Below are positions 8,035-58,770 of a stretch of 64,000 nt of DNA, one piece after another (within the stretch, counting starts at the first letter, position 1; every line of letters starts with the position of its first letter). Below the pieces are notes generated by a model, which was given only the letters and a program-made list of their open reading frames with translations, made no database searches and had not been told where the DNA came from. A program made the translations under genes and the position numbers. The stretch comes from Heterodontus francisci (Eukaryota): assembly GCF_036365525.1 (NCBI RefSeq), contig NC_090378.1:32946372-33010371 (forward strand). Reading direction: 5' to 3'.

Positions 8035-8470
8035 CTTTGTTTACTCTTCCTGTCTTTCTCATTTCTACTTTATTTCTCTTTTACAGATACTTCCTTTTGC
8101 CTGTGCCTTCTACATTCCTTCCCTTCTGTGTTTCTGTCTCAGCTTCCATTGTTTTCTCCCTCTCTCTTCCCCCAATATCTTTGTTTTCTTATGTTCTGTC
8201 TGCTTCTACCCTCTGTTATCCTCAACTCCTTGTCTTCTGTCATTCTGTCAACTCCTTGCTTTGTGTGTGTGAATCTCTTTCTCCTCCCGCTCCCTCCGTT
8301 CTCTCTTTCCAGTTTGATCACTCTTTTCTGGTTATCTTTTCTCTCCGATTTTTTTTTTTCTCCGCTCTGTTTCCTTTCTCACTTTCTTGTTTGTGCTTTC
8401 TCCCTTTTCTGGTTTTTCTGACTGTGTCGCACTCCATTTCTGTTACTCTTTGTCGTCTTGCCCTTCTCCC
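8035..8470. repeat. Pyrimidine-rich low-complexity tract
   Basis: Mostly C/T, giving spurious F/L/S-rich ORFs. Confidence 0.8.
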
Positions 8471-8779
8471 AGCAGTAAGAATAGGTCAGGACTGTAAGAA
8501 GAAATGCTGATGAGGTGAAGAGCTAACCATGATCAACCTGACCTGCTACCAATCCAGTAATGGACAAACCTGAATTTATGACAAAAATCCTATCTCTTTA
8601 TGTATGAGCAGGCTATTGGATAGTGAGAAGCATCACTGCCAAACCCACCATCACCCATCATAAGCACACTTCTAATATTAGTTCTAGTAACTTCTAGATT
8701 GCAGTTAGGATGGGCTATCCTAGCTATTTCCCCTTTCCATTCCCCACCCGTTGCCCTTCCTTACTCAAGTGGCATTCAT

Positions 8780-9150
8780 TATTTTCTCTTTCTTCAATTA
8801 GCTTTATTGATACAGTCTCTTTCATGTCCTGAGGAGGCTCTGAATCATGTTTGATGTGTAGTCACTGTTGTAGGGAAATAATGATGAGGTAATGACCAGA
8901 TAATCTGTTCAGATATTTATTTTGGACGGGATACCAGATGAATTCACTTGCTTTTCTTCAAAATAGTGCCAGGATATCTTTGACATCCACCTGAGAAAAC
9001 AGACAAAATCTTTGTCTCATTTGGAAGATGGCACTCTGACAGGGTATCACACTGCTAGTCCTGCACTGAAGTGTTAGCCTAGATTGTATTCATGTTACTG
9101 CAGTGGGGCTTGAACCCCCAGTTTTTTAACTCAGAGGTAAGAGAGCTACT
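8780..9150 (-). mobile_element. Old DeuSINE (SacSINE1-like) remnant
   Basis: Degenerate reverse complement of 40340-40775 (ttcaaaatagtgcc..gacatccacctgag..tctcat..aagatggcac..agcctagatt). Confidence 0.6.
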
Positions 9151-9256
9151 GCTGACACCTATAGTCGCTATTGCTACTCTGCACAGACCAGGGATTGAAT
9201 CCATGACTTCCCTGATTTGTATGGCTCAACAACGCACTGAACAAATCTGCTTTACT

Positions 9257-9489
9257 AAAAGCAAAATACTGCGGATGCTGGAAATCTGAAATAAAAACAA
9301 GAAATGCTGGAATCACTCTGCAGGTCTGGCAGCATCTGTGGAAAGAGAAGCAGAGTTAACGTTTCGGGTCAGTGACCCTTCATCGGAACGTTCCGATGAA
9401 GGGTCACTGACCCGAAACGTTAACTCTGCTTCTCTTTCCACAGATGCTGCCAGACCTGCAGAGTGATTCCAGCATTTCTTGTGTTTAAT
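9257..9489. mobile_element. Penelope-like terminal (pLTR) fragment forming a perfect inverted repeat
   Basis: Same terminus as 21570 and 32341; palindrome 9297-9482; 11-bp TSD tctgctttact (9246-9256 / 9490-9500). Confidence 0.9.
9390..9424 (+). ncRNA. Minimal hammerhead-ribozyme-like motif (mirror copy on - strand at 9355-9389)
   Basis: gtt-CCGATGA-a-GGGTC act GACCC-GAAACGTT-aac: core boxes, stem II, palindromic ACGT stem III, stem I gtt/aac. Non-canonical U4>C and extra A. Confidence 0.6.
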
Positions 9490-9621
9490 TCTGCTTTACT
9501 GTTGGGATGCGCGAGGTAATTTTATGAAGATGTAGTTTTGATTATAGAGTACTTTGAATTAACTACTCTTTCCATCTTTGCTTACACTCGAGGATTATTG
9601 AGCAGGACACTTTATCTTGTT

Positions 9622-10200
9622 CAAAGTGATTACTGACAACGCAGCCGACAGCTTGCGTCATCCGACTGCGCCACGTGCGCAGATTGGTCCCTACTGTCTG
9701 CGCATGCGCTGCGTTCCGCAGTGCCAGGACTGGTTGGCGCATGCGCAGATGACGTCATCGCGGTACTGCGGGCAGATGGTGGGGGGGATCCAGGCCGGAG
9801 AGAGCAGGGGTGGGGGGAGAGAGGGTCTGGGGAGCAGGTAGAGAGCAGGTGCGGAGAGATGTGGCCAAAGACCTTGATGGTGGCGGGTGCGCTCTCCTCC
9901 TTCCCCCACCTCCCCTTCCCCGACCACTCGCTCACCGACCACTGGCTCACCTGCCCGCTCGCTCCCCTCCCCAGCCCGCTCGCGCGCTCCCTCCCCTTCC
10001 CTCACGGCCCGCTCGCTCGCTCCCCTCCAGCCATTGTGTGCTGCCATGTGTTTAGGTTGCCATCGTGTGATTATTTGAGCAGCGCCATCTTTAATCCTGG
10101 CAGCTGCCTGACGTCGCAGACTGACCTTTTAGTGGCACAGGCTGCATTTGCGCATGTGCCATTGCAGCGCCACCCAATGGTGGCGTCAGCAAACGCAGCC
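9622..10200 (+). mobile_element. Unclassified non-autonomous DNA element, copy A (9-bp TSD family)
   Basis: Termini caaagtgattaCTGACAACGCAG...gcgtcagcaaacgcagcc; TSD tatcttgtt (9613-9621 / 10201-10209). Confidence 0.85.
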
Positions 10201-13200
10201 TATCTTGTTTGATGTATGTAATGCAGTTCACCAAGACTATATTTTGAGTCTTTGCCCATGGTAAGGTATGCAGTTTTCTATGAGCACAGATTCAAACCAG
10301 TGGAAGGAAAATTGCAGGTAGCACACTTAAAATTTTTACAGTCCTGACTTGCAATATGCAAGGTACCTTGCCATGGCCAAGGAATCGGAAAAATCTACCC
10401 TCTAGTCTGATCCATCTTTTATACTGAAGATTTATCCAAGGTTTATTTGTCTAAGAAATGAGTGCTGGACTTTCATCCAAAGCCCCTCATTTTTATCATT
10501 GAAGGGCTTTAATGTTTTTATGTAAATGGCATGAAAGGTTTTTCTCAGTCAATTTAAGCCACAGCTGTTTGTGATTTGTGTTTTCTCAATGTAGACATGG
10601 CCTGATTTGATTTTAAATTACTGTGTAAATAACATTACTACAGGTTGCTTCACCTATAAAATGTGATGCCATTTCGGCAGCATTGCCTTTTTTATGGCCA
10701 GTTTTGTAGTCTCTTGAAAGGCTGTTTTTAGTTATAATGTTTTTTTGCTTAAGTTGGATTTTTAATATTGAATATAAACCATCTGATATGGATATGATGC
10801 AGTACTGTCAAGATTTTAATCTTTTCTGACCACTTCTGTATCGGTGCACTATTTGTTACTGTAATCCGAAAGATTGCACTTTAATGAATGCATGTACATG
10901 TGGACAGCCAAGAAGACGTACTATTTACTGAAACTGATTCTTCAATTGATTATTTCAATAATTGATTACAGTGTTTAGTACTGCTGTCATTCCCCAAGCA
11001 GAAGGCTAAGATGTCCAATTTGTATATAGTTTTTGGACTTCCCAATTGACCTACAATAAGTTAGATGAGTAAAGACATAGTGGACTGATTTGTCATTTGC
11101 TGCTTCCTGTGCAGCTTTTTCTACATTTTTCAGTTTATTCATGCCCTAAGACCTACAAAGTCAGTTTTAGATTGTTAGGAATTTTGGTACATTCCTTTTC
11201 ATTCTTTGCATTACTTCTCCCTCTTTCATTTACATAATTTAAAAAGGAACAATACTTTGTGGTGTTGGAGATGACATTTTTCTCCTCTTTGCCTAGTTCG
11301 ACACTTCCTTGTATCTCCTTATCTGACACACCTGAGCTGGGTGTTGCATAAGTAGAAATAGCAAAGACATTCTTCTGTATAAGTTTCTGTTACCCATTGG
11401 CTTAGGACCCCGTGTGTTTCACTAGAACAAATAAACTCAGAACAGTCTGTTGGAAATTCAGTCTTTTTCTGTACTAGGAAAACTAAAAATGAAAATTTGA
11501 AACAAGGAATGTAAAGAATGCAAAGTGGGAATATGGTGCTAAAATGATTATCAGATGATTTGAATTAAGAGGGATATACTGCATTTAGTGTCCCCATTAC
11601 ATATTTACCCAAGGTGGTTAAGTGTATAACATTTTGTATTTTATCCATATCATCAGGGTCCATGACCATTTGTCAGGGATCTAAACAGCCCATGGCCCAA
11701 AATGAAGCACATTACACTTGTGTTTATGAAATGTTTATCGATATCTTTTATTGCTGATGCTTCATTTGACGCTAAACTGAAAGTGGTGTCAAAGCCTAGA
11801 GGCAAGGCCCAATGGTGGTTAGTCACATAAAGGTGATTCTATCAGAGACTTCCCTTGTGTGCACTCATCATCACAGCTGTTACGGTGTATGAGATCCTCG
11901 GTTCTTTCCCTGTGAAAAACCTGTGATCAAGGATTTTTAATCCCACAACGGCATTACTCATATACATGTAGTATAGTCAGTGTTTTAAAACAGGAATATA
12001 TCTGGCAGCAGTGATTATGTTTGATAAAACTTAGAGTAAAATTGAGAAAAAGGACCTAACTGGTTGGAGTTACTCTTAATTGATTCCCTTTTTCCTCTCT
12101 CTCTCCCAATCCCAGAGTGGAGACAGGCCCTTTTGAATATGGAATCATTGCAGGTAACAAACACCTCCAAAGAGAGAAACCTGGAACTGATCCTGAAAAT
12201 AATTGAGCACAAAAGAAAAATTCTTAAATACAAATCTATTGCCATGTTTCTAGTACAGCTCCATTTGTTGCAATGTACCAACATCTCAGTGTTAACTGAC
12301 AAATGGCACCACTCTTTCAGACTCGAAATCATTTACCTTTCCAGGATGTCTGGAAAACTTAAGAGCATCAATGTGCATGCATAATTGAGGGAATGTGTTA
12401 TAGTGCCATCTGTGTGTGGCATCATTAATGATTTGGTGCTTTATTTGAGCAAAGTTTGAAGTACTTTTCACAGTAAAACAGAAATTTAAGACCATCTCAA
12501 TTTATATACGGACTAGTGGATTTCCTTGGTGTTGCCTGTGGTGAAAAAGTGCAAAAATAGGGCTGTTTCTGAAAATTTAAACTTATTGTAAACATTTGAC
12601 TCTCTTGTCTCTTCCACATATTTCCTTCCTTTATCCCAGTTTTTAGGTGTGATATTTATTCTTCATTGGTTTTATTGAAGCTTTCTTGAGTTTAATTTTG
12701 CTAGTTCAGTTTATTTGCTTAGCCTTTTCATTTTATTTATATTCTTTGGCTGCAGTTCTGGCCCACAGAAAAAAAAAATGCTTTGAACTCAATTATTGAG
12801 AGCAGACAGAAGCTACCATTGAACGAGAAAGATAGTGCTGTAGGAGGCAGAGCTCAACAACTGGAGCTAATGCTTGGTGGGATCAATATTTGCAATAGCA
12901 GCAATCAGTATAGAACAAAATGCAGCAGTAGCTAGTACCCAGTGCCAGTCTGAAACGAGCAGTGCAAACTGAGATTTTAAAAAGTGTAGGGCGGTCGTGT
13001 TTGAAGCAGATCCAGGGACGGAGATTGAAGCTAAGTGGATGGTGAATAGTAACAAGCTGCAGTGGGCAAGCAAACAAAATATGGTAACAAAAACCTCAGT
13101 AAAAGAAAGGAGCAAAATTCGAGCCCCAACCCGAGACTATACCAGACACCAGTGAAAAGGAAAAAAAATGACCTGTAAAGTGATCAAATAGCGAACAGGA

Positions 13201-21160: not shown

Positions 21161-22813
21161 ATTCCAAGTATAGTAATCTGTTGTAAATTATTTGCCTTTC
21201 AATTAGTTCAACTGCTACTTTAGCACTTCAACTCCTTCTGTTCAATTTTTGAAGTCATCACAGCCAAGCTTGATCCTGTTCTCAGCCAGTATCCACACAC
21301 CAGCACTTTGCAGCAGATATCACTGGCTAGCAGGCAAGAGTGGCTGAAACTGTGGCTGAGAATAGCAAAGTCAGCAGGGACTTTCCGTTTCATATTATAT
21401 TACATTAGGCAGTGCCTTTACATACTGGTCCATTAAAGGGCCATTGATCCAGAAATGTGCTAAACCAGTATTTATTGATGATTTACATGTAGCCTGATGA
21501 GCGATATTTCAAACGAGTGAAAGGGGCATTTGCTGGACATATGTTTGTACAAGACTAGCCCTTGTTGATATAAAGACAGAAAATGCTGAAAATACTCAGC
21601 CAGTCTGGCAACATCTGTGGAAGGAGAAACAGAGTTAACACTTCAGGTTAATGACCGTTCATCAGGAATGGGAAAGTTAGAAATGTAATAGGTTCTTAGC
21701 AAAGGGAGGGTGGGAAGAAGAACAAAGGGTCTGTGATGGGGTAGGATTGAATGACAGAACAGTTTGTCGTGCAGGGTCAAAGGGCATGGTAATGGGGCAG
21801 GAAAAGAAACAAATTATGTGCCTAGAGCAGGTATGCTGCTGTCTGATAGCAAAAATAAGAGAACAACTGAAACATGCAAAGACAGGGAAACAGAATGGGG
21901 ACAGAAATTACGGTCTGAAATTGTTAAACTCAATGTTGAGTCCAAAAGGCTGTTAAGTGCCTAGTTGAAAGATAGGGTGCTGTTCATCGAGCTTACATTG
22001 CACTTCATTGGGACAATGCAGTAGGACGAGAACAGAGAGGTCAGCTTGAGAGCATGGTGGAGAATTAAAATGACAGGCGACCGGTAGCTTGGGGTCGTGC
22101 TTGCAGACTGAACGAAGATGTTTCACAAAGCAGTCACCCAGTCTGCGTTTGGTCTCCCTAATGTAAAACTGACCGCATTGTAAGCAGCGAATACAGTATA
22201 CTAAATTGAAAGAAGTACATGTAAATTGCTGTTTAACTTGGAAGACTTGTTTGAGGTCTTGGACAGTGAGGGAGGGGAGGTAAGGGGGTAGATGTTGCAT
22301 TTCCTGTGCTTGTATGGAAAGGGATCAGGGGGAATGGGGTGATTGAGGAGTGGACCAGGATGTCATGGAGGGAATGGTCCCTTCGGAATGCTGAAAGGGG
22401 TGGGTAAGGGAAGATGTGTTTGGCAGTGGCGGAAATGGCAGAAGATGATGGGTTGAATATGGAGGCTAGTGAGGTGGAAGGTGAGGACACTGGGCACCCT
22501 GTTATAGTTCTGATAGGGAGGGGGAAGGGGTGAGAGCAGAAGTGAGGGAAATGGAGCGGACATGGTCGAGGGCGCTGTCAACCATGGTGGTGGGGGAGGT
22601 GTGTCCTCGATTGCGGAAAAAGAAAGACGTATCAGCAGCACTGATATGAAATGTTGCATCATCAGAGCAGATGCGACGGAGACTGAGAAACTGGGAGAAT
22701 GGAATGGAGTTCTACAGGAAGCAGGGTGCGAGGAAGTTTAGTTGAGCTAGCTGGGGCTTGTAATGACTATTCGTTGATAGCCTATCTCCAAAAATAGTGA
22801 CACAAGTTGAGGA

Positions 22814-25800: not shown

Positions 25801-27207
25801 TAGTTTAAACCCTCCCCAACTACACTAGTGAACCTCCCAGCAAGGACAATGGTCCCAGCCCTGTTGAGGTGCAACCTGTCCCTTTTGAATCGGTGGCTTC
25901 TGCCCCAGAACGGGTCCCAATGCCCCAAGCATCTGAAGCCCTCCCTCCTGCACCATGCTTCAAGCCACAGATTGATTCTCCCTATCTTCCAATTCTCCTC
26001 ATGCTGCTGCGCAGCACTGGAAGTAATCCAGAGTGTTACGACCAAGGCAGGAGGAGGGCACTGTCTTTTCTAGTTCCACTTCTCCACAGGTCACAACATA
26101 TATGTTTTTAAATGTTTACCCAATTACCAATGCAGTCAGTCATATACTCGTAATCTCAGAATAAAATACATCAACACACATTTCTTTAATAAATAACAAA
26201 ATTACCAGTTTATTATAAAACAAGACTTAACCAGTAATGAAGCAAAGCATTAACACACAGATTGAAATATGAAAGTTCCCATTTTGAAATTAACCACACA
26301 CAAACTCTCAGACACACTGAAAAAAATACAGAAATTCTTTCTGCAGAGGTCTGTTACCAAAAAAAGGACATAAAACTGAATACTTTGGCCAATACTTGCT
26401 AATTCTTAGAAAAAAGAGAATGTCAATTGTCCCTTTTTGGTCAGACGTCCCAAATACGTGTAGATGACTGTCACTGGGATATTTCTAGAGCAGTTCTTTT
26501 CAGGCGACGTTGAGGATCAGTTTGGCTGGTTTTCCAGCAAAAATGCGGCATCAGGAGTTTCTGGAAGACTTTTCAGGAGAAATGCAGCATCAGTTTCTCT
26601 GTTTCTTACACTTGATTCTCAGGGAGTTCTCAAAGAGATGGAAGAGGGTGAGCTGATGGGGCTGCTCTCTTGGCTGGTTTTCTCCAACTTTCTTCATAAC
26701 AGTTCACGCCCCAAAACATTGTCCAAAGCGAAACCAAAAACAATATCTCGAGAGTTAAGCCTCCGGACCCCTATAAATCTTGACCTGTCACTTCTCTGTC
26801 AACATCTTCTCCAGGTCACCAAGGTTTCTGTTTATTGCTTAAAGCACATGACTTCCAGCAAGGCTGTTTTTAAACAACATCTCAGTGTCCTTTCAATGAA
26901 CAGTTAACGACAAAGCAAAGCCTAGCTTCTATGAAATCTTCAGCCTTCCCGTGAATCCATCTTCACAATTTAAATATAAGTCCTCAAAAACATATACTGA
27001 ACAAAAAATATAGAAGCTCTTTCATAACGAGATTACTACCTTCGCGTTCCTACTCTTTAACTTCCTCCCTAGCTCCTGAAAATCTGAATGTAGGACCTCA
27101 ATACCTGCCCTTGCTATGTCATTGGTACCAATGTGTGCCACAACCTCTGGCTCATTTCCTTCCCTCTGCACAATATCCAGTACCCTTTCGGTGATGTCCT
27201 TTACCAG
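22814..27207 (-). mobile_element. Decayed near full-length CR1 LINE (ORF1 SGNH esterase + ORF2) inside Penelope
   Basis: SGVPQGSVLGPLLF, DVVYTDFKKAFNKVPHKRL; ORF1 motifs VVAHIGTNDI and FKRDRLHLNRAG. Confidence 0.85.
26034..27028 (-). mobile_element. Solo LTR inserted in CR1 ORF1
   Basis: tgttacgacc...tcataac; interrupts CR1 gtaatccagag|attactacc with gag duplicated; related to 6041-6920. Confidence 0.8.
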
Positions 27208-27525
27208 GGAGGCAAGGGAAGAGAAGAGTTGGCCATGTGCAGGCGAGAGAAAGATGGAAATTGGAAACAAAGTTGTTGAAATTTTCCAGAAAAATGCGAG
27301 AGCAGGAAATGGCACCAATACAGTCATCAATGTACTGGACTGGTCTGGCGGCGAGTATTTCCAGTATTTTCTGTGTTTATTTCAGATTTCCAGCATCCAT
27401 AGTATTTTGCTCTTGTATCAGCCCTTGTTGATGCTTGGCTAAAGTTGTGAATCTATTCATATTGAAGGAAAATCTTTTCTATGGCTCCCGATATAGAGGT
27501 CTTCTTTGACCCCTTCCATCAGTTT

Positions 27526-31500: not shown

Positions 31501-32638
31501 TGCTTGTGGATTAAAATGATATTTGTTTTGAGTTTTTGCAAATTTACTTCAATTAAAAGCAATACCTATCAATAGTTAGCAAGAGCAAAAATAAACAACA
31601 GATTAGTCAGCATTTATAAAGAAAAAAGTACACTGAACATTCCAGGTGTAAAGCTTTATGGAGTTCAATGGGGTATAGAGTAAATGCAATGTGTTTAAAG
31701 CATTTGCAGTTCTTTTTTCTTTTTCTTTCATACAGTAACATCCTTTTTGTTACCTTCATTCTGGGACTGGTTTGAAAAGCAGACATTTTACTCCTTTTAT
31801 GCAACATGTTGGTGATTCTCCTTAGTCGACATTTGGTCAACTCTTTACTGCCATTTGACTAAAAGCATTCCATTTAACTCAAGGATTTAGAATTTAAGTT
31901 CAAAGCATTGCTGAAGTGAATAACAACTGTACTGTATTTGCATTAAAAAGTATAATTTTTTCATGAACTTGCATTAGTTTTGTCGTTTAAGAGTTTCACC
32001 TGCAGTTACTTGCTTTTCTGAAGAGACTGAATAAAATGAGGAAGTCAAGATGGATACAATGAAGAAGGCCATTTGCTCACTGTATTCAAGAAGAAATACA
32101 GTCCCCAATTGTAGCATCTAACTGTTAAATATTAAGTCTGGTATCCTACCCAAAAGTCTATTCAGCCATTGATCATTTTTTGTGTTAGTATTTGAACTTG
32201 TGCCTCCTTCTTCAGAGTTTCTCCTGTATTTCTGCATAACTCAGCCTTCAGATACTCGGGATCATTCTTATAATTTTTTTTCTCTCTACTTGAAAGTCTC
32301 TTTTGTGTCCATGTAGCTAGGACTGAAACAGCACTCTGATAACAAAAGCAAAATACCATGGATGCTGGAAATCTGAAACTAAAACAGAAAATGCTGGAAA
32401 TACTCAGGTCAGGCAGCATCTGCGAAGAGAGAAACAGTTAATGTTTCCATGATGTATCGCCAGAACTGGAACAAGTTAGTAATGTTTCAGTTTTTAAGCA
32501 AGCGTAGAGGCAGGGAAAAGTAGCAGGGGTGAGTGGCAGGGTAGGAATGAACAAACAACAACTACTTATATTTATATAGTGCCTTCAACGTAATAAAACG
32601 TCCCAAGGTGCTTCACAGCAACATTATAAAACAAAATG

Positions 32639-33806
32639 CAAAGTGATTCCTGACAACGCAGTGGCCCACTGACGTCATCAGAGTGCGCCAACGTCATCGC
32701 GTATCTGTGCAGCTACAGCTTGTCAGGACTAAGTGGCGCATGCACGGGATGATGTCATCACACAGCACCGACGTCATCGCGTAACTGCGCCTGGTTCATC
32801 TTCACACATGCGCTATAAAGTGTCATCGGGTATCCACCCCCCACTCGGTTGGAGGAAGCGGCTGAATAGGAGACTTTGAGGCTGGAGCTCTCCCTCCTCA
32901 GCAACTCGCTCCAGGCCTCGACACTTCCTGCCCTCAGCCACTCGCACCAGACCTCACTGCTCCCCCCCCACCACCACCACCACCACCCCCCCCAACTCCC
33001 CTAGCCCCCTAGCCAATTGTTCCTCGCTTCGCGTCACCCCGCTGTCCGGCCGCTCGCTTCCCCTCACCTGCAGCCGCTAGCTCTAGGCCGCGCCACTTCC
33101 CTTCTCTCAGCCACCCGCTCCTACGTCGCCCCGTCACCTTGTGTGACCCGCCAGCCCTTGCAACCTGCCTTGCTTCTTCAGGTGGCGCGTGGAGACTGAT
33201 CAAGCGTGGGAGCGAGTGGCCGAGAGGAGGGAAGCGGTGCGGCCTCGAGCTAGCGGCTGGAGGTGGTGGGGGGGTGAGGGAAGCAAGCAGCCGGAGAGCG
33301 GGGTGGCGCGAGCGGGGAACGAGTTGGGGTGGGGTGGGGGTGGGGAGAGCAGCCAGTAGGGTGGGAGCTAGTAGTCGGGTGAAATCTGTGCTGCTCAGTC
33401 ATATAAACGAATCACAATAACAACTTGGCAGCGCATTTTATACTCTGCCCGATTTTCATTTCCATCGATCGGGGTGCCAATTCACTAACTTCCAATGGAA
33501 ATTCAATCATAAAATTCCTTTTGTATTTAATAGGATTACTGGAATATTAAATGGATCTGATGATTACAGTTAGTATCCTATAACTACATAGTAGCATATT
33601 ACTGGGCTTCCATCCAACTCAATGTAAGGTTAGTTTGCTAAAACGATCTCGCCATAAGCATTTCCTGCGATAAATTGAGCAGTGCCATCTTTAATCCTGG
33701 CAGCTGCCTGAACGTTGCAGACATTGACGTTCCAGTTGAATAGCCTCCATTTGCGCATGTGCAAGTACTGCGCCACCTAGTGATTGTGTTGTCAGCAAAC
33801 ACAGCC
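32639..33806 (+). mobile_element. Unclassified non-autonomous DNA element, copy B
   Basis: caaagtgattcCTGACAACGCAG...tgtgttgtcagcaaacacagcc; degenerate 9-bp TSD aacaaaatg / aataaaata; cleanly splits the L2 tail. Confidence 0.85.
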
Positions 33807-38003: not shown

Positions 38004-40339
38004 AGGACATCAAAGGTGGAAGTGAGGGTGCGGTTGAGCAAATCAGCAGAAATATTGTGGCGATCGGAAGGCCAAAGGCTAGACCGTTGAGATTTTGAAA
38101 GTACAGTTGTAGGTAAATTGGGGGATAATTTTTTCCAGGGACAGATGAAAAAGGAGGTAGATTTGGGGCGTGGAAGGGGAATATGGGTGGTGAGTGATAC
38201 AAGGAAATAATCAGAGATGGCCTTATCTGTAATAGATACAATGGGACTTGCAAGACCACGTGCGATGGCAAGCTCAAGGGGGTGGCTGTGAATATGGGTA
38301 GTTCTGTGATAGGGTGGAAGGCAGGAGTGATTAAATAACAAAAGGGATGATAGTACAAGACAAAAGGGCACATGGTAATGGGACCAGTGAAGAATCAAAA
38401 GATGAGTGTAGAGGAGCTATATATAGCACCAGCAGAACCCTTACCAGCACGTTGTGTCTGGGAAGGAAAAAGCAATGGTTATGATCAGAAGTTATAGAAA
38501 TCCGTTTCGAGTCTGGAAGGTTGTGAAGTGCCTAACTGATAGATGTGGTGCTGTTACTCAAGCTTCTGTTGAACTTCATTGGAACAGTGTAAGAGGCCTG
38601 AGACAGAGGGAGTGGGATGAGGAGTTAAAATGGCAAGTGACTAGAAATTCCAAGTCATGCTTGAGGACTGATCGGAAGTGTTCAACAAAGCGGTCAACCA
38701 ATCTGCGTTTGGCCTCCCCAGTGTAAAGAAGACTGCATCGTAAGCAGTGAATACTATATACTAAATTGAAAGAAGTAAAGCGACTTGTTGTTTCACATGG
38801 AAGGAATGTTTGGGGTCCTGGATGATGGGAAGGGAGGAGGTGAAAGAGCAGGTGTTGCATCGCCAGCACTTGTACCGGATGGTGAGAGTGGGTGATGGAA
38901 GAGTGGATTAGAGTGTCGCAAAATTCCCTTTGGAATGCTTAAAGGAGAAGGAAAGATGTGTTTGATGATGGCCTTGCACTCGAGATGGTGGTGGATGATC
39001 CGTTGAATGTGGAGGCTGGTGGTCTGGATGGTGCGGATAAGGGGAACATTTTTGTAGTTCAGGGAGGGAGGGGGAGATGCGAGGGCAGAAATGTGGGAAA
39101 TGGGATGGACGTCATCATGGGCCCTGTCAAACACAGTGAAGGAGAATCCTCAGTTGAGAAAGAAACACCTATTGGAAGCATTGGTGTGCAAGGGGTATTG
39201 TCAGAACAGATGTGACAGAGATGGAGGCACTGGGAGAATCGAATCAAGTCTGTCCAGGAAGCGGGTGGGAGATTGTGTAATCAAGGTAGCTGCGGGAGCC
39301 GGGTTGATGGTAGTAATTCATTGATAGCCTATCCCCAGAAATGGAGATTACGAAGTTGATAAAGGGAAGGGAAAAGATGAAGGTGAGAGAGGGGTGGAAT
39401 CAATACCAGAGCACAAGGCAGCTCTAGCACAGCTATTCTAATTTGTATCTCTTACTTTGGCTTTGTAGCTTAGTATTTCGCTTGCTTTATTAATCACTGC
39501 TGCAGAGTAACTGGGGATGTTAAACTACTGGCCCTAGATCATTTTCAGTTTCACACCCTGCTATTTCGCTATTCATGGAGTGATTATGCAATACTAAATT
39601 TCATTTTCCACTATCCTATCCGCTTAAATGTTTCATTTACATCCTTGACCAATACCTCAAATTTAACAAATTCGCATTGAGCTTCAAAGTTCAAGCTGTT
39701 CACATTAATTAGATGCACTAGAGACATAGGAACAGGAGTAGGCCATTCAGCCCCTCGAGTATGTTCTGCCATTCAATTAGATCATGGTTGGTTATCTTAA
39801 CTTCACCCACCTACCTTGGCTCCATATCTCTTTATTACCCTTGTCTTACAAAACTGTAGCAATCTATCTCAGATTTAAAAATTTAAAGTCCGAACACCAA
39901 TACCTGGACACTGTCCTGAATATCAGTTTCTAATCTGTATTTACACTGAAAACACAGGTGGGCACCAGTTGTCATAATTTAATCTTAACTGTAGTTAAAA
40001 TTCCATAACTTGCATAGCATCAGATTGTAGAAGAAATTATGGGGTTTTCCTTCATTTCTTGGGGAGAAATTGAAGACTATTGTGGATATGTATTGCCACT
40101 CTTTGATGCTAAATCTGAGTAGTTGTTTATAGTGTCACAGTGGGACACAGCTAGCTGTTGTCTTCTCCCACCCATCCACAAACCACTCCCCCCCCCACCC
40201 CCCAATGTTATAATTCATGATGGCACTCAAAACCTCCGTCCCACCCATTCAAACCCTCATTGTTCTCCCACTTCCTCGAAGTTTATGCTAATACTTCTCC
40301 TCCTCCTTTCTCCTCCCTCACCTCCACATTGGCACTCCT

Positions 40340-45119: not shown

Positions 45120-45727
45120 TTCTGCCTCCAAGAGCTGCCAGCTATTCAGTGGGCCAGCAGCTCTCAACCCCATCAGGGTCACTGGGAGCGGTGGCCATTG
45201 CTGGGACTGCACCCAGCTCCAGCAGCAAGAGGGACGCCATCCCGGAAACGAGCTAAGTTTCTGGGGCTTTGCTAGGGGCAGTCAGCTGGACCCCGGTGAG
45301 GCAAGGGAGGTTCAGTTGTGGGGTGGTGGTGGAGGGGGGCGGAGTTGGGGGGGACGTGTTGTGTAGTGGAGGTGGTTGGGCTGTAGGGGGCCCCTCCATG
45401 GGGCACAGGGTGCCCGATCAGGAGGTTGCCCCCCCCAGCCTGCAAGGAGGCTGCCAGCTTTTATTGGGCAGCCTCCTGTGCGACCTCAGCCGGCTGCAGC
45501 GGGAGGAGGCCCTTAAGTGGCAGTTAATGGGCCACTTAAGGGCCTTGATTGGCCTGGGGTGAGCGGGCAGCTTCTTGCTGCCCCTCATAAAATTGCAGCA
45601 GGGGCAGGAAAGAGTCGGGAATGGCCCCCCCACCCCCCCCCCCCCCCGCCTCCCACTAAATTTTATGATTCCCGCCCCCCCACCCACCACCAGCCTGCTC
45701 CTGTGTGGGGGCATAAAATTCTGGCCC
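45120..45727. mobile_element. Harbinger-type non-autonomous element, one end preserved
   Basis: Right end aaaattctggccc is the reverse complement (one mismatch) of the TIR gggccggaatttt at 56943; internal hairpin 45507-45545. Confidence 0.6.
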
Positions 45728-49587: not shown

Positions 49588-50960
49588 GTACAGCACCTCT
49601 GACAGTCCTGCACACCCTCTGTAATTCTGTGAAGTTGCCCCCGCTCTCTCCAGCCACTCGCTCCCCGCTTACCCCCCCACCCCCTCCCACCCCTCCAGAC
49701 GCTAGCTCTAGGACGCACCGCTTCCCTCCTCTCGGCCACGTGCTCCTACGTCGACTTATCACCCCTCACGGCCCCCGCCTTGCTTCTTTGGGCGGTGCGG
49801 TGTGGGAGGGAAGCGGGGAGCAAGTGGCCAGAGAGAACGGGGGGGAGTGGGGAGCGAGTGGCCCGCAGTCAGTGGCCGGGGGTGGAGGGGGGCGGGGAAG
49901 GAGGAGAGCGTTTTCCTGCGCATGCGTCGATTAGTCCGCTCTCCAACCGCTCCCCGCACCTGCCGCCGCCAAGGTCTCCAGCCGCTCGCTCCTTGCTTCC
50001 AGCCCCGGTACTACTCTCCGGCCTTTCGCTTCCAGCCCCCACCTTCCAGCTGCTCCCTCCAGGATCAGAGCGCCCACATCCAGATGCTCCCTCCAGCTTC
50101 AGAGCCCCCCATCCAGCCACCCGCTCCCCTACTTCTCAACTGGACGGCAGGTATTCCAGGTGTCTGGTCCCTGCCTTTTGCATACCTCTCTTCAGGCAGT
50201 TCTGATTTTAACTTCCTCCCCCCTCCAAGGACCACAGTTGAAAAATCTGAAATACAGTTGCAAAGTACGGAACAATATCAACAAAGTAACCTCAACAATT
50301 CCGTGTTTAATTATTGAGCAATTTTATTAAGTACATGAGGTATTAGAGACATGGCTGTGCATGGATACATGAGTTTTGTGTCACCAGCATTCCTGTGAAA
50401 CAGACAGGCCGAGTCTCTGCTATGCCGAACTGAAGAAATTGTTCCTGGAGAGCCTTGCGGTGAATGAAGGTTTGGCTCTCTATTCCACTACTGAATTGAC
50501 CATGTGAAGAAGGCAAAGTCACCAGAGTCTGGGCTGCAGATGATGCATCCTAATGTCCATATCATCCATAAAGGCAAGGTTCCTTTCCACATCGTGACCA
50601 GTTCCACAGCATGAACTAATTGCTCAGCACATCCTTGTGTCTTGTCCTACACTGCCTCCATTGTTTGAATGCCGTCCTTAAGTCTCAAGGATTGTTTTCT
50701 CGAGGGCATGTTTTACATGAAAGGAAATAGAGAAAGGGATGCACTGCCTGCACACAGCCCCGGACAACTGAAAGGGATTTTAGTGCAGTGCACTGGCCTG
50801 GAAATGGGATGCATCTCAGAGCAAACAACAGCACATCAACTTACCTTCAAGCAATCTCCTCTTTACAATAAAAATGAAGAAAACTGAAATCTCCAAAACT
50901 GCTATGGCTGCAAGAAAACTCTCCTCTTTCCAATAAAATCGCAAGAAAAGTCTCCTCTTT

Positions 50961-52284
50961 CAGTATTCACTAGTGAGAGGGACCTGGTCGTTTGTGAGGA
51001 CAGCGTGGAACAGGCTGATATGCTCGAACAGGTTGAGGTTAAGAGGGAGGATGTGCTGGAAATTTTGAATGATATGAGGACAGATAAGTCCCCGGGGCCA
51101 GACGGGATATACCCAAGGATATTACGGGAAGCGAGGGAAGAGATTGCTGCGCCTTTGGCGATGATCTTTGCGTCCTCACTGTCCACTGGAGTAGTACCGG
51201 ATGATTGGAGGGTGGCAAATGTTGTTCCCTTGTTCAAGAAAGGGAATAGGGATAACCCTGGGAATTATAGACCAGTCAGTCTTACGTCGGTAGTGGGCAA
51301 ATTATTGGAGAGGATTCTGAGAGACAGGATTTATGATTATTTGGAAAAGCATGGTTTGATCAGAGACAGTCAGCATGGCTTTGTGAGGGGCAGGTCATGC
51401 CTCACAAGCCTTATTGAATTCTTTGAAGATGTGACAAAACACATTGATGAAGAAAGAGCAGTGGATGTGGTGGATATGGATTTTAGCAAGGCGTTTGATA
51501 AGGTTCCCCATGGTAGGCTCATTCAGAAAGTGAGGAGGCATGGGATACAGGGGAAGTTGGCTGTCTGGATACAACATTGGCTGGCCCATAGAAGACAGAG
51601 GGTGGTAGTAGATGGAAAGTATTCAGCATGGAGCTCGGTGACCAGTGGTGTTCCGCAGGGATCTGTTCTGGGACCTCTGCTCTTTGTGATTTTTATAAAT
51701 GACTTGGATGAGGAAGTGGAAGGCTGGGTTAGCAAGTTTGCCGATGACACGAAGGTTGCTGGAGTTGTGGATAGTGTGGAAGGCTGTTGTAGGTTGCAAC
51801 GCGACATTGACAGGATGCAGAGCTGGGCTGAGAAGTGGCAGATGGAATTCAACCTGGAAAAGTGTGAAGTGATTCATTTTGGAAGGTCGAATTTGAATGC
51901 AGAATACAGGCTTAAAGACAGGATTCTTGGTAGTGTGGAGGAACAGAGGGATCTTGGGGTCCATGTCCATAAATCGCTCAAAGTTGCCACCCAAGTTGAT
52001 AGGGTTGTTAAGAAGGCGTATGGTGTGTTGGCTTTCATTAACAGGGGGATTGAGTTTAAGAGCCGTGAGGTTATGCTGCAGCTCTATAAGGCCCTGGTTC
52101 GACCACACTTGGAATATTGTGTTCCGTTCTGGTCGCCTCATTATAGGAAGGATGTGGAAGCTTTAGAGAGGGTGCAGAGGAGATTTACCAGGATGCTGCC
52201 TGGACTGGCAATGTTGGCCTGTCAAGGTTCGGCACAACATCGTGGGCCGAAGGGCCTGTACTGTGCTGTACTGTTCTATGTTCT
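50961..52284 (+). mobile_element. Young 5'-truncated CR1 (HER1-like) LINE with uninterrupted RT frame
   Basis: ORF 51005-52324: KSPGPDGIYPRIL, QHGFVRGRSCLT, DFSKAFDKVPH, GVPQGSVLGP, KFADD; tail gggccgaagggcctgtactgtgctgtactgttctatgttct. Confidence 0.95.
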
Positions 52285-52727
52285 TTCCAATGAAATCGCG
52301 AGAGAATGCTCCTCTTTCCAATAAAATGCCAGAAAATACAACTACGACCGCAACAAAACCTCTCCTCCTTCCACTTTCAGAAACTTTCGCCAAAGGTTGA
52401 CGCATGCGTGAATACCCGATGGCGTTGCAGTATGCGTAAAGCGCATGCGCGGAGGTCGACCAGGTGCATTATACAATGATGTACGCGTTACGCGATGACA
52501 TTTCCCGCGCCTGCGCCAGCCAGTCCTAGCAAGGTGGAACCCCGCGCACGCTCAGAGAGAAGGAGCGCATGTGCACAGCTTGGTGCAGTCTGATGACATC
52601 AGCGGGCCGCTGCGTTGTCAGGAATCACTTTGTAAATTTAACAACTTTCAGATTTTCTGAAGGCAGACAGGCTGTAAGAAAGAAAGACAACCAGTGGTGG
52701 CAGCCTCAAGGGAGAGAGTGAGGGAAC

Positions 52728-53686: not shown

Positions 53687-56600
53687 TGACGACTTTTAAT
53701 GCTCAAGCCTTTGTGGGGAGAGAAGATTTGACTCTCAATGATTTAACACAGTTAACAGTGGATGGATACAATATTGGCTATAGCAGAGCAAGTGAAGGTT
53801 AGTTTAAAATCAAAAGCTAAAAAGGCAGATATTGTTGAAGTGTTGGCTAGGCATTTTAACATTGAGGAAGAAAGGATGATCCTGGTAGCTCAGATTGAGT
53901 TAGCTCGAGTTCAGTTACAAATGAGGCAACGAGAACTTGGAAAAAAAAGAAAGGGAAAAAGACAGACAATTTCAGCTTACACTGCGAAAGTTTGAATTCG
54001 AAGAGAAAGAAAAGCCAGGAAATTTACACTGTATACAAAAAGACTTTAGATTACACATATAGGGAGTGACAGGAAGGTTTGAGGATGAATCCGATTTAAC
54101 TTCTGGTTTTGATTTGGCAAGAAATATTCGTTCAGTGCCTAAATTCAGTGAGGAAGGAGTTGAAATGTATTTTGTGTCCTTTGAAAAATTGCTACGCAGT
54201 TGCAATGCCCAAAAGAAAGTTGGACAGTTTTATTGTAAAGCGTGTTAGCAGGAAACGTTTTTGAGGTATATTCACCATTTTCAGAGAAACAGTCAAGTAA
54301 TTATGAAGTCGTTAAAACTGTAGTTTTCAATGCTTATGCATTGCTTACAGGCAAAAAGAAAGAAACAGGGCCAGACATTTATGGAATTTGCTAGAGATAA
54401 GGTATTAAAATTTGATTGTTGGTATGGGTTCCTGAAGATTGAGAGATTTTGAAAGCCTTAGGAAAGTAATCCTAATGGACGAATTTAAAAATAGCATCCC
54501 TTCAGTAATATTATTTGCTAAGTTGGTAAAATAAGGAATGCCACAGAAATGGCAGATGATTATGAATCGACCCACAAAAGTAGTAGTTACAGGTCCCGGT
54601 TAGGAGCCTTTCAGAGGAGTTGGAAAGATAGGAGGGCAGATAGTGAGAAGAGATTCTGTTTTAGTGAGAGAAAGGATAAAGGAGAGGATACAGGCGACCC
54701 CCAGAGTGGTAAAGAAAGATGGTCAGGAGACTAGGGTTGAGTCAAAAGGACTAACGTTATTTTTGTATTCAAAGAGGGCATATAAAATCAGAATGCTGGA
54801 GGTTGAAAGGCAAGCCAGTAGCTATGGTAGGTTTACTGAAAATCTGTCCTGAAAAGGATGCCCCAATGGGCGGCACTGCTGACAAGCCAGTGGATTTGGT
54901 GATGTTGGATAGTTAGCAGAAATGTGTTCCCCTGTTTACTGATGAAATAAGTCAGGTCTCTGAAGGGTATAGAAGTTTTATGTTCAGGGGGAAGGTGTCC
55001 CCATATTTGGTGAAGCAGGCAAGCCAATCATGCTGCTTAGAGATACAGAGGCAACTCAGACATTAATGATAGCAAAGGATGTAGATTTTGCCCCAAATAT
55101 CTCATATCTTTGGCCTCCTTGTCTTGAGAGACAATGGGTAAGCGCCTGGAGGTGGTCAGTGGTTTGTGAAGCAGAGCCTGGAGTGGCTATAAAAGCCAAT
55201 TCTAGAGTGACAGACTCTTCCACAGGTACTGCAGATAAAATTGGTTGTCGGGGCTGTTACACAGTTGGCTCTCTCCTTGCGCTTCTGTCTTTTTTCCTGC
55301 CAACTGCTAAGTCTCTTCGACTCGCCACGCTTTAGCCCCGCCTTTATGGTTGCCCGCCAGCTCTGGCGATCGCTGGCAACTGACTCCCACGACTTGTGAT
55401 CAATGTCACAGGACTTCATGTCGCGTTTGCAGACGTCTTTTTGCCCCAAATAGTGCTATGAATATGAAGGTCATGGTGCGGGACATTGAGGGGGGTTATT
55501 TATCCGTTCCATTGCACAAGGTTAATTTGCAATGTGATTTAGTCATGGTCCGATAACAGTGGGAATCGTCCCTGATTTGCATATTAAAATGGTGGATTTG
55601 TTACTAGGGAATGACTTAGCTGGGGATAAGGTAGTTTCGGAAAAGCCAGTTGAGATTGCTGAACTGGAAGGAGGAATTTCCTGGAATATTTCCAGATTGT
55701 GTCGTGACAAGATCCCAGGTTCATAAGACTAAAAAAGTTGAGAAGGATTCAGTTGTTGTGGAGGACAATTTGGGTGTTTGGTTGGCTGAAGCTTTTTTTT
55801 CCCCAAGGATTTGGATGGGGATGTTGGTGAAAAAGGTTCCAAAGCTAGCAATGGTGAATTGTTTAGCAGACCATCTTTTATTGAGGCACAACAGGCAGAT
55901 CCTAATTTAAGAAGTTTGTCTCAAACGTTGTGTTCTGAGGCGGAAGCTGAAAAGGTTTGTGAGTGCTATTGTATTAATGAATGACATTCTAATGAGAAAG
56001 TGGAGACTTCCCAGAGTCCTGCTGATGAAGATTGGGCTATAGTTCATCAGGTTGTTACTGCCCCGGGGTACTGTGGTGAAATTTTGAAAATTGCTCATGA
56101 GATCGCAGTGGCAGGTCATGTGGTTATTCGAAAGACGCCGGCCAGGATAAGACAGCATTTTTATTGGCCAGGCTTGCATAAGGATGTGGTTGAATTTTGC
56201 AGAACTTGCCATACATGTCAGGTAGTTGGGAAACCACAGCCTTTGATTAAGCCAGCTCCATTGATACTGATACCTGCTTTTGGCAAACCATTTAGTAGGG
56301 TTTTTGTGGATTGTGTCAGACCCTTACCCACAAATAAGTCAGATCACAAGTTTCTCCTAACGATCATGGATTTGTCCACAAGGTTTCCAGAGGCAACACC
56401 TTTGAGAAAGGTCCCAACAAAAGTTGTGATTGAGGGGTTAATACAGGTTTTCAATATGTTTGGATTGCCAAAAGAAATTCGGTCAGACCAGGTGTCAAAT
56501 TTCGTGTCCGGGTAGTTCAAGCGCTCACGTGCAATGTGGGGGTGAGACAGCTCAAATCGTCTGCTTATCACCCGCAGTCACAAGGTGCTTTGGAAAGGTA

Positions 56601-56942: not shown

Positions 56943-58770
56943 GGGCCGGAATTTTACCGTTGAAAAACGGGAGTATTATGAGGCGCCCGTGACGTAAAAC
57001 GGTGGTCGATGACGTCGGGTTCCCAACGTCATGATGCACAAACGCCATTTTATGATGGTCGGACAGCAGGCGAGATCGAGGAGCCGCTCACTGTCCGCTT
57101 ACAATCAATTAAAGGGCAATTAAGGTCTTTAAAACACCAATTGACAGCCATTTTACGGTGGCTGTCGGATTTTACAGCCATAAATCGAGTCAGGGGGCGT
57201 CTCGGGAACCCAGTAGGTTTAAAAGAATGGCAGGCAGTGAATCGGTGAGGGTGTTGGAGGTACTGTCATGTTGGCTGGTAGTTCAATGTTATATCTTTGT
57301 ATGACTTTAAAGTTTGTGCTACTTTCAGATTGTTCTACAGGGTACATCTGAGTGTTACTAACTCCTGATCTGGCCCCAGAGGTATTGATTTATTGGTTGA
57401 GAGGGAAGGGGCTGTGTGTGTCTTTACTCACAGCAGGCTGATAAGACCTGAAGTAATAGCATCTGTGGAAAGCAGCAACAATGGGAATTGTGCACTCTGG
57501 AAGCGGCTCATCTAATGAGGATGTCTATGCCCCAAGGAGAGACAGGAGGACAACTGGCTAGGGGAGCACGCAAGCTGCTGGCCCAGTGCGGCCTCATAAT
57601 GGAGGAGGGGGAGAAGGTGGCAGAATGGCCCGGGTGCAACCACCTGTCAGGAGACGGGCAGGCAGGGTCAACTGCCCATGTTTGAGCTTCTACAACTGTC
57701 AAAACACCAGTGCCGAAGAAGACTCTGCTGTCATGGGAGACTGTCACATCTCTGCACGAGTTGCTGGCAGCGGAGTTTGCTTCAAACTGCGTGGGTGGCC
57801 ATCCAATGCCGGTCGCACTGAAGGTAACAGTAGCACTGAATTTTTATGCATTAGGCTCATTCCAGGCTTCATCAGCAGACATGTGCGGAGTCTCCCAAGC
57901 ATCAGCGCATCACTGCATAAAAGTTGTTACTGAAACCATTTTCAGGCATATGAACCATTTTATCAACTTCAAGACGGACCCCGCCAGTCAGGCCGAGAGA
58001 GCCAGAGGCTTCAGCACCTATGCTGGGGTCCTGATGGTCCAGGGCGTAACAGAGCACCAACAGGCCAATCGGGGGCCTTCGTTAATCGCAAGGGGTTCCA
58101 CTCAGTGAATGTTCAGCTCTTATGTGATCATTGTAAGGGAATCATGCAGGTGAGTGCACGTTACCTTGGGAGCTGTCACGATGTGTTCATTCTTAGGAAC
58201 TCCCAGGTGCCAGCATTGTTCAGCCCTCCTGCACGCCTGCAAGGAGGGATACTTGGCGACAAGGGTTATCCGCTGAAGACATGGCTGATGACACCGGTGA
58301 GGAACCCAACGAATGATGCAGGGGAACGTTACATTGCGAGCCAGGTGGCCACCAGAGTGACAATTGAACAGACTATAGGTCTTCTCAAAATGAGATTTAG
58401 GTGTCTCAATCGCTCAGGTGGAGCCCTGCAGTACTCGCCATCAAGGGTCTCCAGAGTTATTGTGTGCTGCGCCATACATAACCTGGCAATGGAGAGGGGA
58501 GATTCCCTGGAGGATGATGAAGGTCAGCGTGAGGCTTCCTCAGACGAGAATGGTGAAACATATGAGGAAGAGGGGCCGCAGCCATCTGACCAGCGGGCAG
58601 ATGGAGCTGACAGTCAGATGGAGTTGAGTGCAAGGGAGACCTGGGAGGCTCTAGTACTCAGGCCTTTCTCCTGCACAGCGCACCATCAAACATGAACCGA
58701 CATGGCAGTCTGAGTGGAGTCAATGACAGGAGCTGGAAGGGCAGAGGCACTTACCCTCGGCGGGGAAATC
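56943..58770 (+). mobile_element. PIF/Harbinger transposon remnant with HARBI1-like DDE transposase
   Basis: TIR gggccggaatttt; KVTVALNFYALGSFQ, NVQLLCD, GSCHD, LGDKGYPLKTWLMTP, TRVTIEQTIGLLKMRFRCL; frameshift near 58060-58105; right TIR not found. Confidence 0.9.

Follow-up and report, generated by a model that had tools for sequence, protein, structure and literature searches.

A spacerless palindrome of two probable Penelope-like termini with a hammerhead motif on each strand in the genome of Heterodontus francisci

An inverted-repeat scan of the 64-kb window (the whole stretch of DNA analysed here) identified a perfect spacerless palindrome of 186 bp at 9297-9482. Each of the 93 positions of the left arm (9297-9389) pairs with its counterpart in the right arm (9390-9482), and the first mismatched pair is 9296/9483, which confirms the mismatch-free inverted repeat with 93-bp arms described in a previous reading of the sequence alone (the sequence-only reading). 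The chance expectation for perfect palindrome arms of this length is about 1e-50, and the runner-up perfect inverted repeat in the window has arms of only 15 bp. A perfect inverted repeat with 15-bp arms and a 9-nt spacer lies at 45507-45545, inside a GC-rich repeat. The sequence TCTGCTTTACT is present at 9246-9256 and 9490-9500 and absent elsewhere in the window on both strands; if extended to 9243, this target-site duplication (TSD) grows to 14 bp with one mismatch. The sequence-only reading had the 11-bp TSD flanking the palindrome. The duplication is there, but the palindrome is not its direct neighbor, as each TSD copy is set apart from it, the left by 40 nt (9257-9296) and the right by 7 nt (9483-9489). 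The insert between the TSD copies, 9257-9489, is therefore an asymmetric 233-bp segment, in which the right arm goes on mirroring the left to 9489 with mismatches at 9483 and 9488. The absence of differences over 93 bp sets arm divergence at 3.2% or less (95%), and the insertion is thus young or homogenised; the duplication and the identical arms uphold the earlier description of a young, TSD-flanked, head-to-head insertion. The features of the locus and its relatives in the window are as follows.

9246-9256, no strand: left TSD copy, 11 bp
9257-9289, minus strand: Penelope tail, a 33-nt 3′ extension on the left arm only (inner boundary at 9289-9292, from X15 read ends)
9290-9389, minus strand: left arm, a 5′-truncated pLTR end in sense on this strand, with perfect pairing over 9297-9389
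9355-9389, minus strand: minimal hammerhead motif, minus copy, with U4C core and 3-bp helix I
9389-9390, no strand: point where the two copies meet head to head with no spacer, on the 5′ border of hammerhead helix I
9390-9424, plus strand: minimal hammerhead motif, plus copy
9390-9489, plus strand: right arm, a tail-less inverted pLTR copy with perfect pairing up to 9482
9490-9500, no strand: right TSD copy
21566-22810, minus strand: longer, older copy with decayed RT-thumb/linker and GIY-YIG end (about 21914-22711), 3′ UTR and hammerhead end
27353-27414, plus strand: short 3′-end copy with tail, no inverted partner
32344-32551, minus strand: tailed 3′-end copy whose hammerhead is decayed, without inverted partner

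A little to the right of the insert, 9622-10203 is a GC-rich repeat with related pieces at 32639, 33663, 49087 and 52491; the stretch 33019-33320 is imperfectly self-inverted (69%), and a MITE-like family is possible. A Pfam scan of 69 of the 153 stop-to-stop frames of at least 85 aa (those ending before 30000, less two scanned apart) detected only retroelement-type domains. Remnants of RT and RNase H of an LTR-type retroelement occupy 328-1594. By its motifs, the frame at 55985-56515 is presumably integrase-like; we take the 478-aa open frame at 50888-52324 to resemble a CR1-type RT and the 253-aa frame at 57934-58695 to resemble a Harbinger-type transposase. A weak GDSL-lipase match at 25803-26069 on the minus strand (E 8e-5, below the cut-off) is, we presume, possibly a LINE ORF1 esterase.

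In the insert, the 3′ end of a Neptune-like Penelope retroelement, hammerhead included, is present twice in head-to-head orientation, and the palindrome is very probably a Penelope inverted-pLTR stump. The same 3′ end recurs in the window at 21566, 27353 and 32344, so that the palindromic form accounts for one of four terminus copies; for the four other Penelope pieces of the window that were checked, no inverted partner was found within 3 kb. The copy at 21566 extends 1.2 kb into a decayed frame, and its GIY-YIG portion (21914-22273) is followed, about 240 nt behind, by the shared 3′ end. This copy ties the palindrome to a Penelope-like ORF and bears out the Penelope origin proposed for the arms. 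Alone, the decayed frame produced no Pfam match; its Atlas features indicate GIY-YIG, and it matched 1,739 proteins at E 0.001 or better by phmmer. One relative, P0041, aligns to 21932-22711 in three pieces (tblastn, E 2e-29). A homologue search with longer lengths gave 0 of 27 candidates at E 0.001 or better. The relatives of this ORF are single ORFs of 772-946 aa with RT (RVT_1) and C-terminal GIY-YIG in all six long matches scanned, several of the individual domain matches falling under the Pfam curated cut-off. A CX2-5CxxC linker lies between RT and endonuclease (EN) in eight of eight relatives and is decayed in the 21566 copy. The best named protein matches come from cartilaginous fish, and the three that were looked up belong to a skate, a stingray and a sevengill shark. 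The RT plus C-terminal GIY-YIG ORF expected of an EN+ Penelope-like element was thus found through the 21566-22810 copy and its relatives, the insert itself having no such ORF, while the inverted 5′-truncated pLTR copy adjacent at the 5′ end is present in the insert. A second decayed Penelope endonuclease piece was seen at 38488-39359; it is 69% alike to the 21566 copy, keeps a CxxCxxC linker remnant near 38870 and has no match to the hammerhead end.

Read data indicated that the family is large. In run X15, in which 51,222 of 11,989,820 raw reads were placed on the stretch compared, depth on the arm was about 34,000 compared with 0-1 in the unique flank. This suggests a family of the order of 1e5 copies, a rough figure since X15 is a capture library. 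Exact-pattern scans found 0 loci in viral, genome and metagenome contig sets.

The asymmetry of the insert is explained by the ends of the family. The X15 reads end at two 3′ termini, 9256/9257 (14,304 reads) and 9290/9293 (3,287 reads). The left arm extends to the first, and the right arm stops at the mirror of the second. The 33-36 nt between the two termini are the Penelope tail, which is present on the left arm only, in keeping with the one-sided tail of 30-40 nt of EN+ Penelope-like elements. In the typical element of PMC3846280, an inverted pLTR lies next to the element, one end bears a 31-bp tail, and the TSD is 9 bp long; the paper also notes abundant head-to-head structures, with palindromes where the copies meet. 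The same inverted-pLTR, tail and TSD layout is given for Penelope-like elements (PLEs) generally in PMC8557442, and PMC11167929 places the tail between two RT start sites. The insert therefore has the published Penelope insertion layout with no ORF between the repeats, and a one-sided tail with an inverted arm calls for no new element type. In run X1, an opposite-strand joint between 9257 and 9290, from tail end to tail-less end, was observed in 10 contigs at depth 74; it is probably a tail-to-tail joint and perhaps reflects one copy inserted at the end of another.

A hammerhead motif is found on each strand, at 9390-9424 (plus) and 9355-9389 (minus). A relaxed core scan of the window returned three matches, and the full layout was seen in two of them, which are the two palindrome motifs. 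In the plus motif, helix I is formed by 9390-9392 and 9422-9424, the core is 9393-9399, an extra A follows at 9400, helix II spans 9401-9413 and is followed by GAAA (9414-9417), CG, U16.1 (9420) and H17=U (9421). The 5-bp helix II with G10.1-C11.1, the extra base after A9, the GAAA and the palindromic 15.2-16.2 are features of minimal hammerheads, and the scan substantiated both the motif as it had been written and its assignment to the minimal type I layout. The palindrome center, 9389/9390, coincides with the 5′ edge of helix I, so the fold point does sit beside the ribozyme as had been proposed. Two departures were noted. In place of an intact CUGANGA core, both arms have CCGAUGA (U4C), and helix I is 3 bp rather than 4-5 bp; the parent sequence permits 4 bp and the junction removes the fourth pair. 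The Rfam hammerhead models, which had been suggested as a check, gave no match at gathering score in the 64 kb and none among the 15 matches at E up to 10. This is weak evidence because motifs of this kind were found by descriptor in PMC4209133. The miRNA and snoRNA models among the Rfam matches at E up to 10 fall below gathering score and were discarded as reflecting the hairpin. Private decay was rejected as the source of U4C: in the reads covering 9385/9394, position 4 is U in 7,386 of 15,713 X15 reads (47%) and C in up to 53%, and C in about half of the family reads makes it a subfamily trait. In the same family, position 7 is either U or A (63% A); U occupies 11.1 in 51% and A occupies 10.1 in 20%, which fits G-C, G-U and A-U pairs in these unphased counts.

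The palindrome has a predicted fold of -188 kcal/mol, in agreement with the very stable hairpin anticipated from sequence. When the hammerhead was forced within the insert, the predicted energy was -138.6 instead of -194.0, a penalty of 55 kcal/mol. The predicted pairing probability of helices I and II is 0 in the whole insert; for an arm-only RNA it is 0.98-1.0 for helix II and 0.017 for helix I. Since the two motifs lie on opposite strands, one transcript has one sense copy and no dimer can form within it. According to PMC4209133, the minimal hammerheads of PLEs show no activity as monomers and little as dimers. The U4C change reduces activity in vitro, with one viroid tolerating it and the variants still infectious (PMC3088659), and the hammerhead of the element PAc cleaves only with protein and is dispensable for insertion in vitro (PMC11167929). 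The proposal of ribozyme action is thus opposed by the U4C core, the 3-bp helix I and the modeled pairing, and a ribozyme working in this palindrome is unlikely on these predictions. We also consider it very unlikely that the palindrome would yield a functional RNA, be it a dimer-acting ribozyme or a selected ADAR/Dicer hairpin. The well-formed helix II of the arm-only RNA, the stability of the full hairpin, the protein-assisted cleavage of PAc and the infectious viroid variants speak for such an RNA; the single sense motif per transcript, the helix I probabilities, the published inactivity of monomers and the young appearance of the insertion speak against it.

Support for the locus was sought in read and contig pieces over 8800-9420, a stretch that ends before the right junction of the insert; the rows of small share (X6-X11, X13 and X14) and the runs X2-X4 and X16-X19 stayed outside this comparison. 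Run X1 supplied a contig of 2,388 nt that is identical to the window over 8800-9279; the match crosses the left TSD and takes in the first 23 letters of the insert. Therefore, the left junction exists outside the assembly, with the proviso that X1 may derive from the assembly's own sample. Four runs of one sample (X1-X4) each contain 0.86 of the sampled words from 8400-9700. The palindrome center of this locus was bridged by none of the 24 pieces listed for 8800-9420 (73,931 more were found), and no empty allele or orthologous empty site appeared among the pieces listed. The lack of a directly bridging piece and the incomplete word content would fit an assembly or library fold-back, or arms made identical later by polishing or gene conversion. 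However, the mirror ends at a natural family terminus and is followed by new unique sequence behind an 11-bp TSD, where a fold-back chimera would be expected to keep mirroring the left flank, and the X1 contig agrees with the left junction without a difference. We take the palindrome to be a real feature; an artefact origin is unlikely, and the combined scenario of fold-back or later homogenisation appears highly improbable.

The sequence-only reading also raised a non-coding, Penelope-dependent family of palindromes. Under that explanation the source locus already has the center, its transcript snaps back and remakes the palindrome at every insertion, and the insertion belongs to a miniature family, which would account for the zero spacer and the perfect arms together. 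A contig of X12, from another organism (C), aligns over 9331-9416 at 10 differences and 1 gap; X15 reaches a depth of 118 at 9409-9420 and has 60 reads that extend past the ends; and certain joints have high depth or are shared by two organisms, as 9309 to 9388 is by X15 and X12. Against this, 13,476 X15 reads diverge from the palindrome at 9384/9389 and continue upstream into ordinary sequence, which resembles that upstream of the 21566 copy, compared with the depth of 118 past the center, and 270 reads fit both arms, enough to supply that depth. The X12 contig runs only 27 letters beyond the center, under the 31-letter rule, and in the joints listed the hammerhead edge is joined to a wide variety of partner positions. 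Same-center forms make up at most 0.8% of the X15 family depth (118 at 9409-9420 versus 15,713 at 9385), a bound that is soft both ways, as both-arm reads could supply the depth and hairpins may be under-sequenced; 0.8% of about 1e5 copies could still be hundreds of loci. As most family reads run on upstream, a dominant same-center family is not supported, and an inherited junction at this locus seems improbable. Several X1 joints have depths of 72-232 compared with about 9 in the unique flank, which hints that some junctions are themselves amplified. The joint 9309 to 9388, which X15 shows in 15 reads with 10 starts and X12 at depth 96.7 but which is missing from X1, may represent an amplified miniature whose inverted ends measure about 50 nt.

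Inversion joints from the read and contig comparison were drawn from the best 15 of 305 joints and the best 12 of 107 between-letter rows. Fifteen distinct head-to-head joints were kept (10 + 5), with direction assumed for four "opposite strands" rows; 5 + 5 rows (skips, go-backs, a flank join, tail-to-tail) and 2 duplicates were left out. In 12 of the 15, the start of the sense arm falls between -5 and +8 nt relative to 9390, and in three it falls at +22 to +26. This clustering is biased by the reference sense copy beginning at 9390, by many sides shorter than 30 letters and by the selection of rows; binomial values for it were set aside because of the row selection and the reference edge. 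The ends of the partner arm are scattered over 9278-9349. This biased sample suggests an inversion hot spot at the 5′ edge of the hammerhead. A broader proposal can be formulated, which we regard as possible but rather doubtful: the hammerhead 5′ edge would act as a constant stopping point, or as the 5′ end of the RNA, and shark PLEs would build the inverted arm there, the motif setting the fold point instead of serving as a cleavage site; the way PLEs insert could then be read from many thousands of such junctions, and in some cases palindromic junctions may spread as miniature families. A literature search, to which subscription journals for the most part and Repbase were closed, returned no paper that treats hammerhead-centered palindromes of Penelope elements in sharks or a hammerhead as a hot spot for folding.

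The palindrome was likely built during one insertion, and we tentatively favor a route with two cDNAs, which we hold somewhat short of probable and in which every step is conditional. The element's protein, acting in trans, would nick both target strands 11 bp apart. One nick would prime a cDNA from the tail-bearing start and the other from the tail-less start; both cDNAs would stop at the 5′ edge of the hammerhead and then be joined end to end. A read-through transcript of the product would close on itself as a 93-bp hairpin, with the ribozyme buried inside. The PAc protein is reported to cleave and extend both target strands and to start reverse transcription at two tail-bracketing sites (PMC11167929), and here the mirror of the second terminus, 9290-9293, is where the right arm stops. 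Both arm mismatches lie in the outermost 7 nt, beside target sequence resembling the element, as expected at a priming end. The two-cDNA route is favored because it explains the one-sided tail, the stop at the second terminus, the outer mismatches and the zero spacer. Its weakness lies in the full identity of the arms. They have a T at 9319, where 30,033 of 30,956 family reads (97%) have A, and since the arms are identical at this base too, the two cDNAs need one RNA or source locus and the same stop base. Twin priming was rejected because both arms cover the same sequence, and hammerhead cleavage was rejected as the cause of the center because the cleavage site, 9421/9422, lies 32 nt away.

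Copying one arm off the other would explain the identity of the arms, rare T9319 included, at once. In the self-priming model (Arkhipova 2013), one cDNA that ran to the hammerhead 5′ edge would have folded back or been capped by a hairpin and copied itself, and an endonuclease would have resolved it at the tail-less end, tail formation by EN resolution being the proposal of Craig 2021. PMC3846280 interprets head-to-head junction palindromes as self-priming, and one of the joints listed (9284 to 9392) has 3 shared letters. However, a zero-spacer center requires a pre-existing mini-hairpin that is missing in ordinary copies: beyond the center the parent sequence continues TGG without a hairpin, so direct snap-back cannot give a zero spacer. 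Moreover, plain self-copying predicts neither the two mismatches at the outer end nor the stop at the second RT start, and the joints listed mostly have 0-1 shared letters or 1-6 added letters. We consider self-priming an unlikely origin of this palindrome, and the two-cDNA route is retained as the working account.

By itself, a single locus with the smallest form of the published Penelope layout matters little. Its use is as a probe of PLE insertion. The abundance of the family offers enough young junctions to separate two-cDNA joining from self-priming and to test the hot spot at the hammerhead edge. Perfect palindromes of such length would also be candidate fragile sites and sources of dsRNA. 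How PLEs make inverted pLTRs and what the hammerhead does are stated to be unresolved in PMC8557442 and PMC11167929.

Among known systems, several share part of this architecture. The relatives of the linked ORF have the RT, CX2-5CxxC linker and C-terminal GIY-YIG of the Neptune clade, an assignment that rests on the linker since the window copies have no RT core. PAc, a Poseidon-clade element of Anolis (PMC11167929), has a hammerhead about 100-130 nt from two tail-bracketing 3′ termini and an AT-rich target, as here. Both-strand priming is known from PAc, a Poseidon, whereas the family here is Neptune-like, which counts against the two-cDNA route, and the PAc termini lie inside the start of the ORF while the insert has no open frame after the core, with a stop after 4 codons. 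The motif shares with the minimal type I hammerheads of metazoan PLEs (PMC4209133) the extra nucleotide between 9 and 10.1, G10.1-C11.1, the palindromic 15.2-16.2, the lack of helix III and a short helix I, and differs from them in its U4C core, 3-bp helix I and H17 = U. Non-LTR retrozymes (bioRxiv 10.64898/2026.07.22.740005) are likewise small, non-coding, hammerhead-bearing and pLTR-derived, but they are head-to-tail tandems with at least two same-strand ribozymes; the insert is head-to-head with one motif per strand and is thus not a retrozyme. Pen2a_Av (PMC3846280, PMC8557442) likewise has a head-to-head inverted 5′-truncated copy with a palindrome at the junction. Its tail is 31 nt and its TSD 9-10 bp, compared with 33 nt and 11 bp here. 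The insert differs from the Pen2a_Av layout in having neither ORF nor tandem copy between the repeats, in being 233 bp in all, and in that its arms start at the same base, with no spacer, at a junction that falls on the 5′ edge of the hammerhead.
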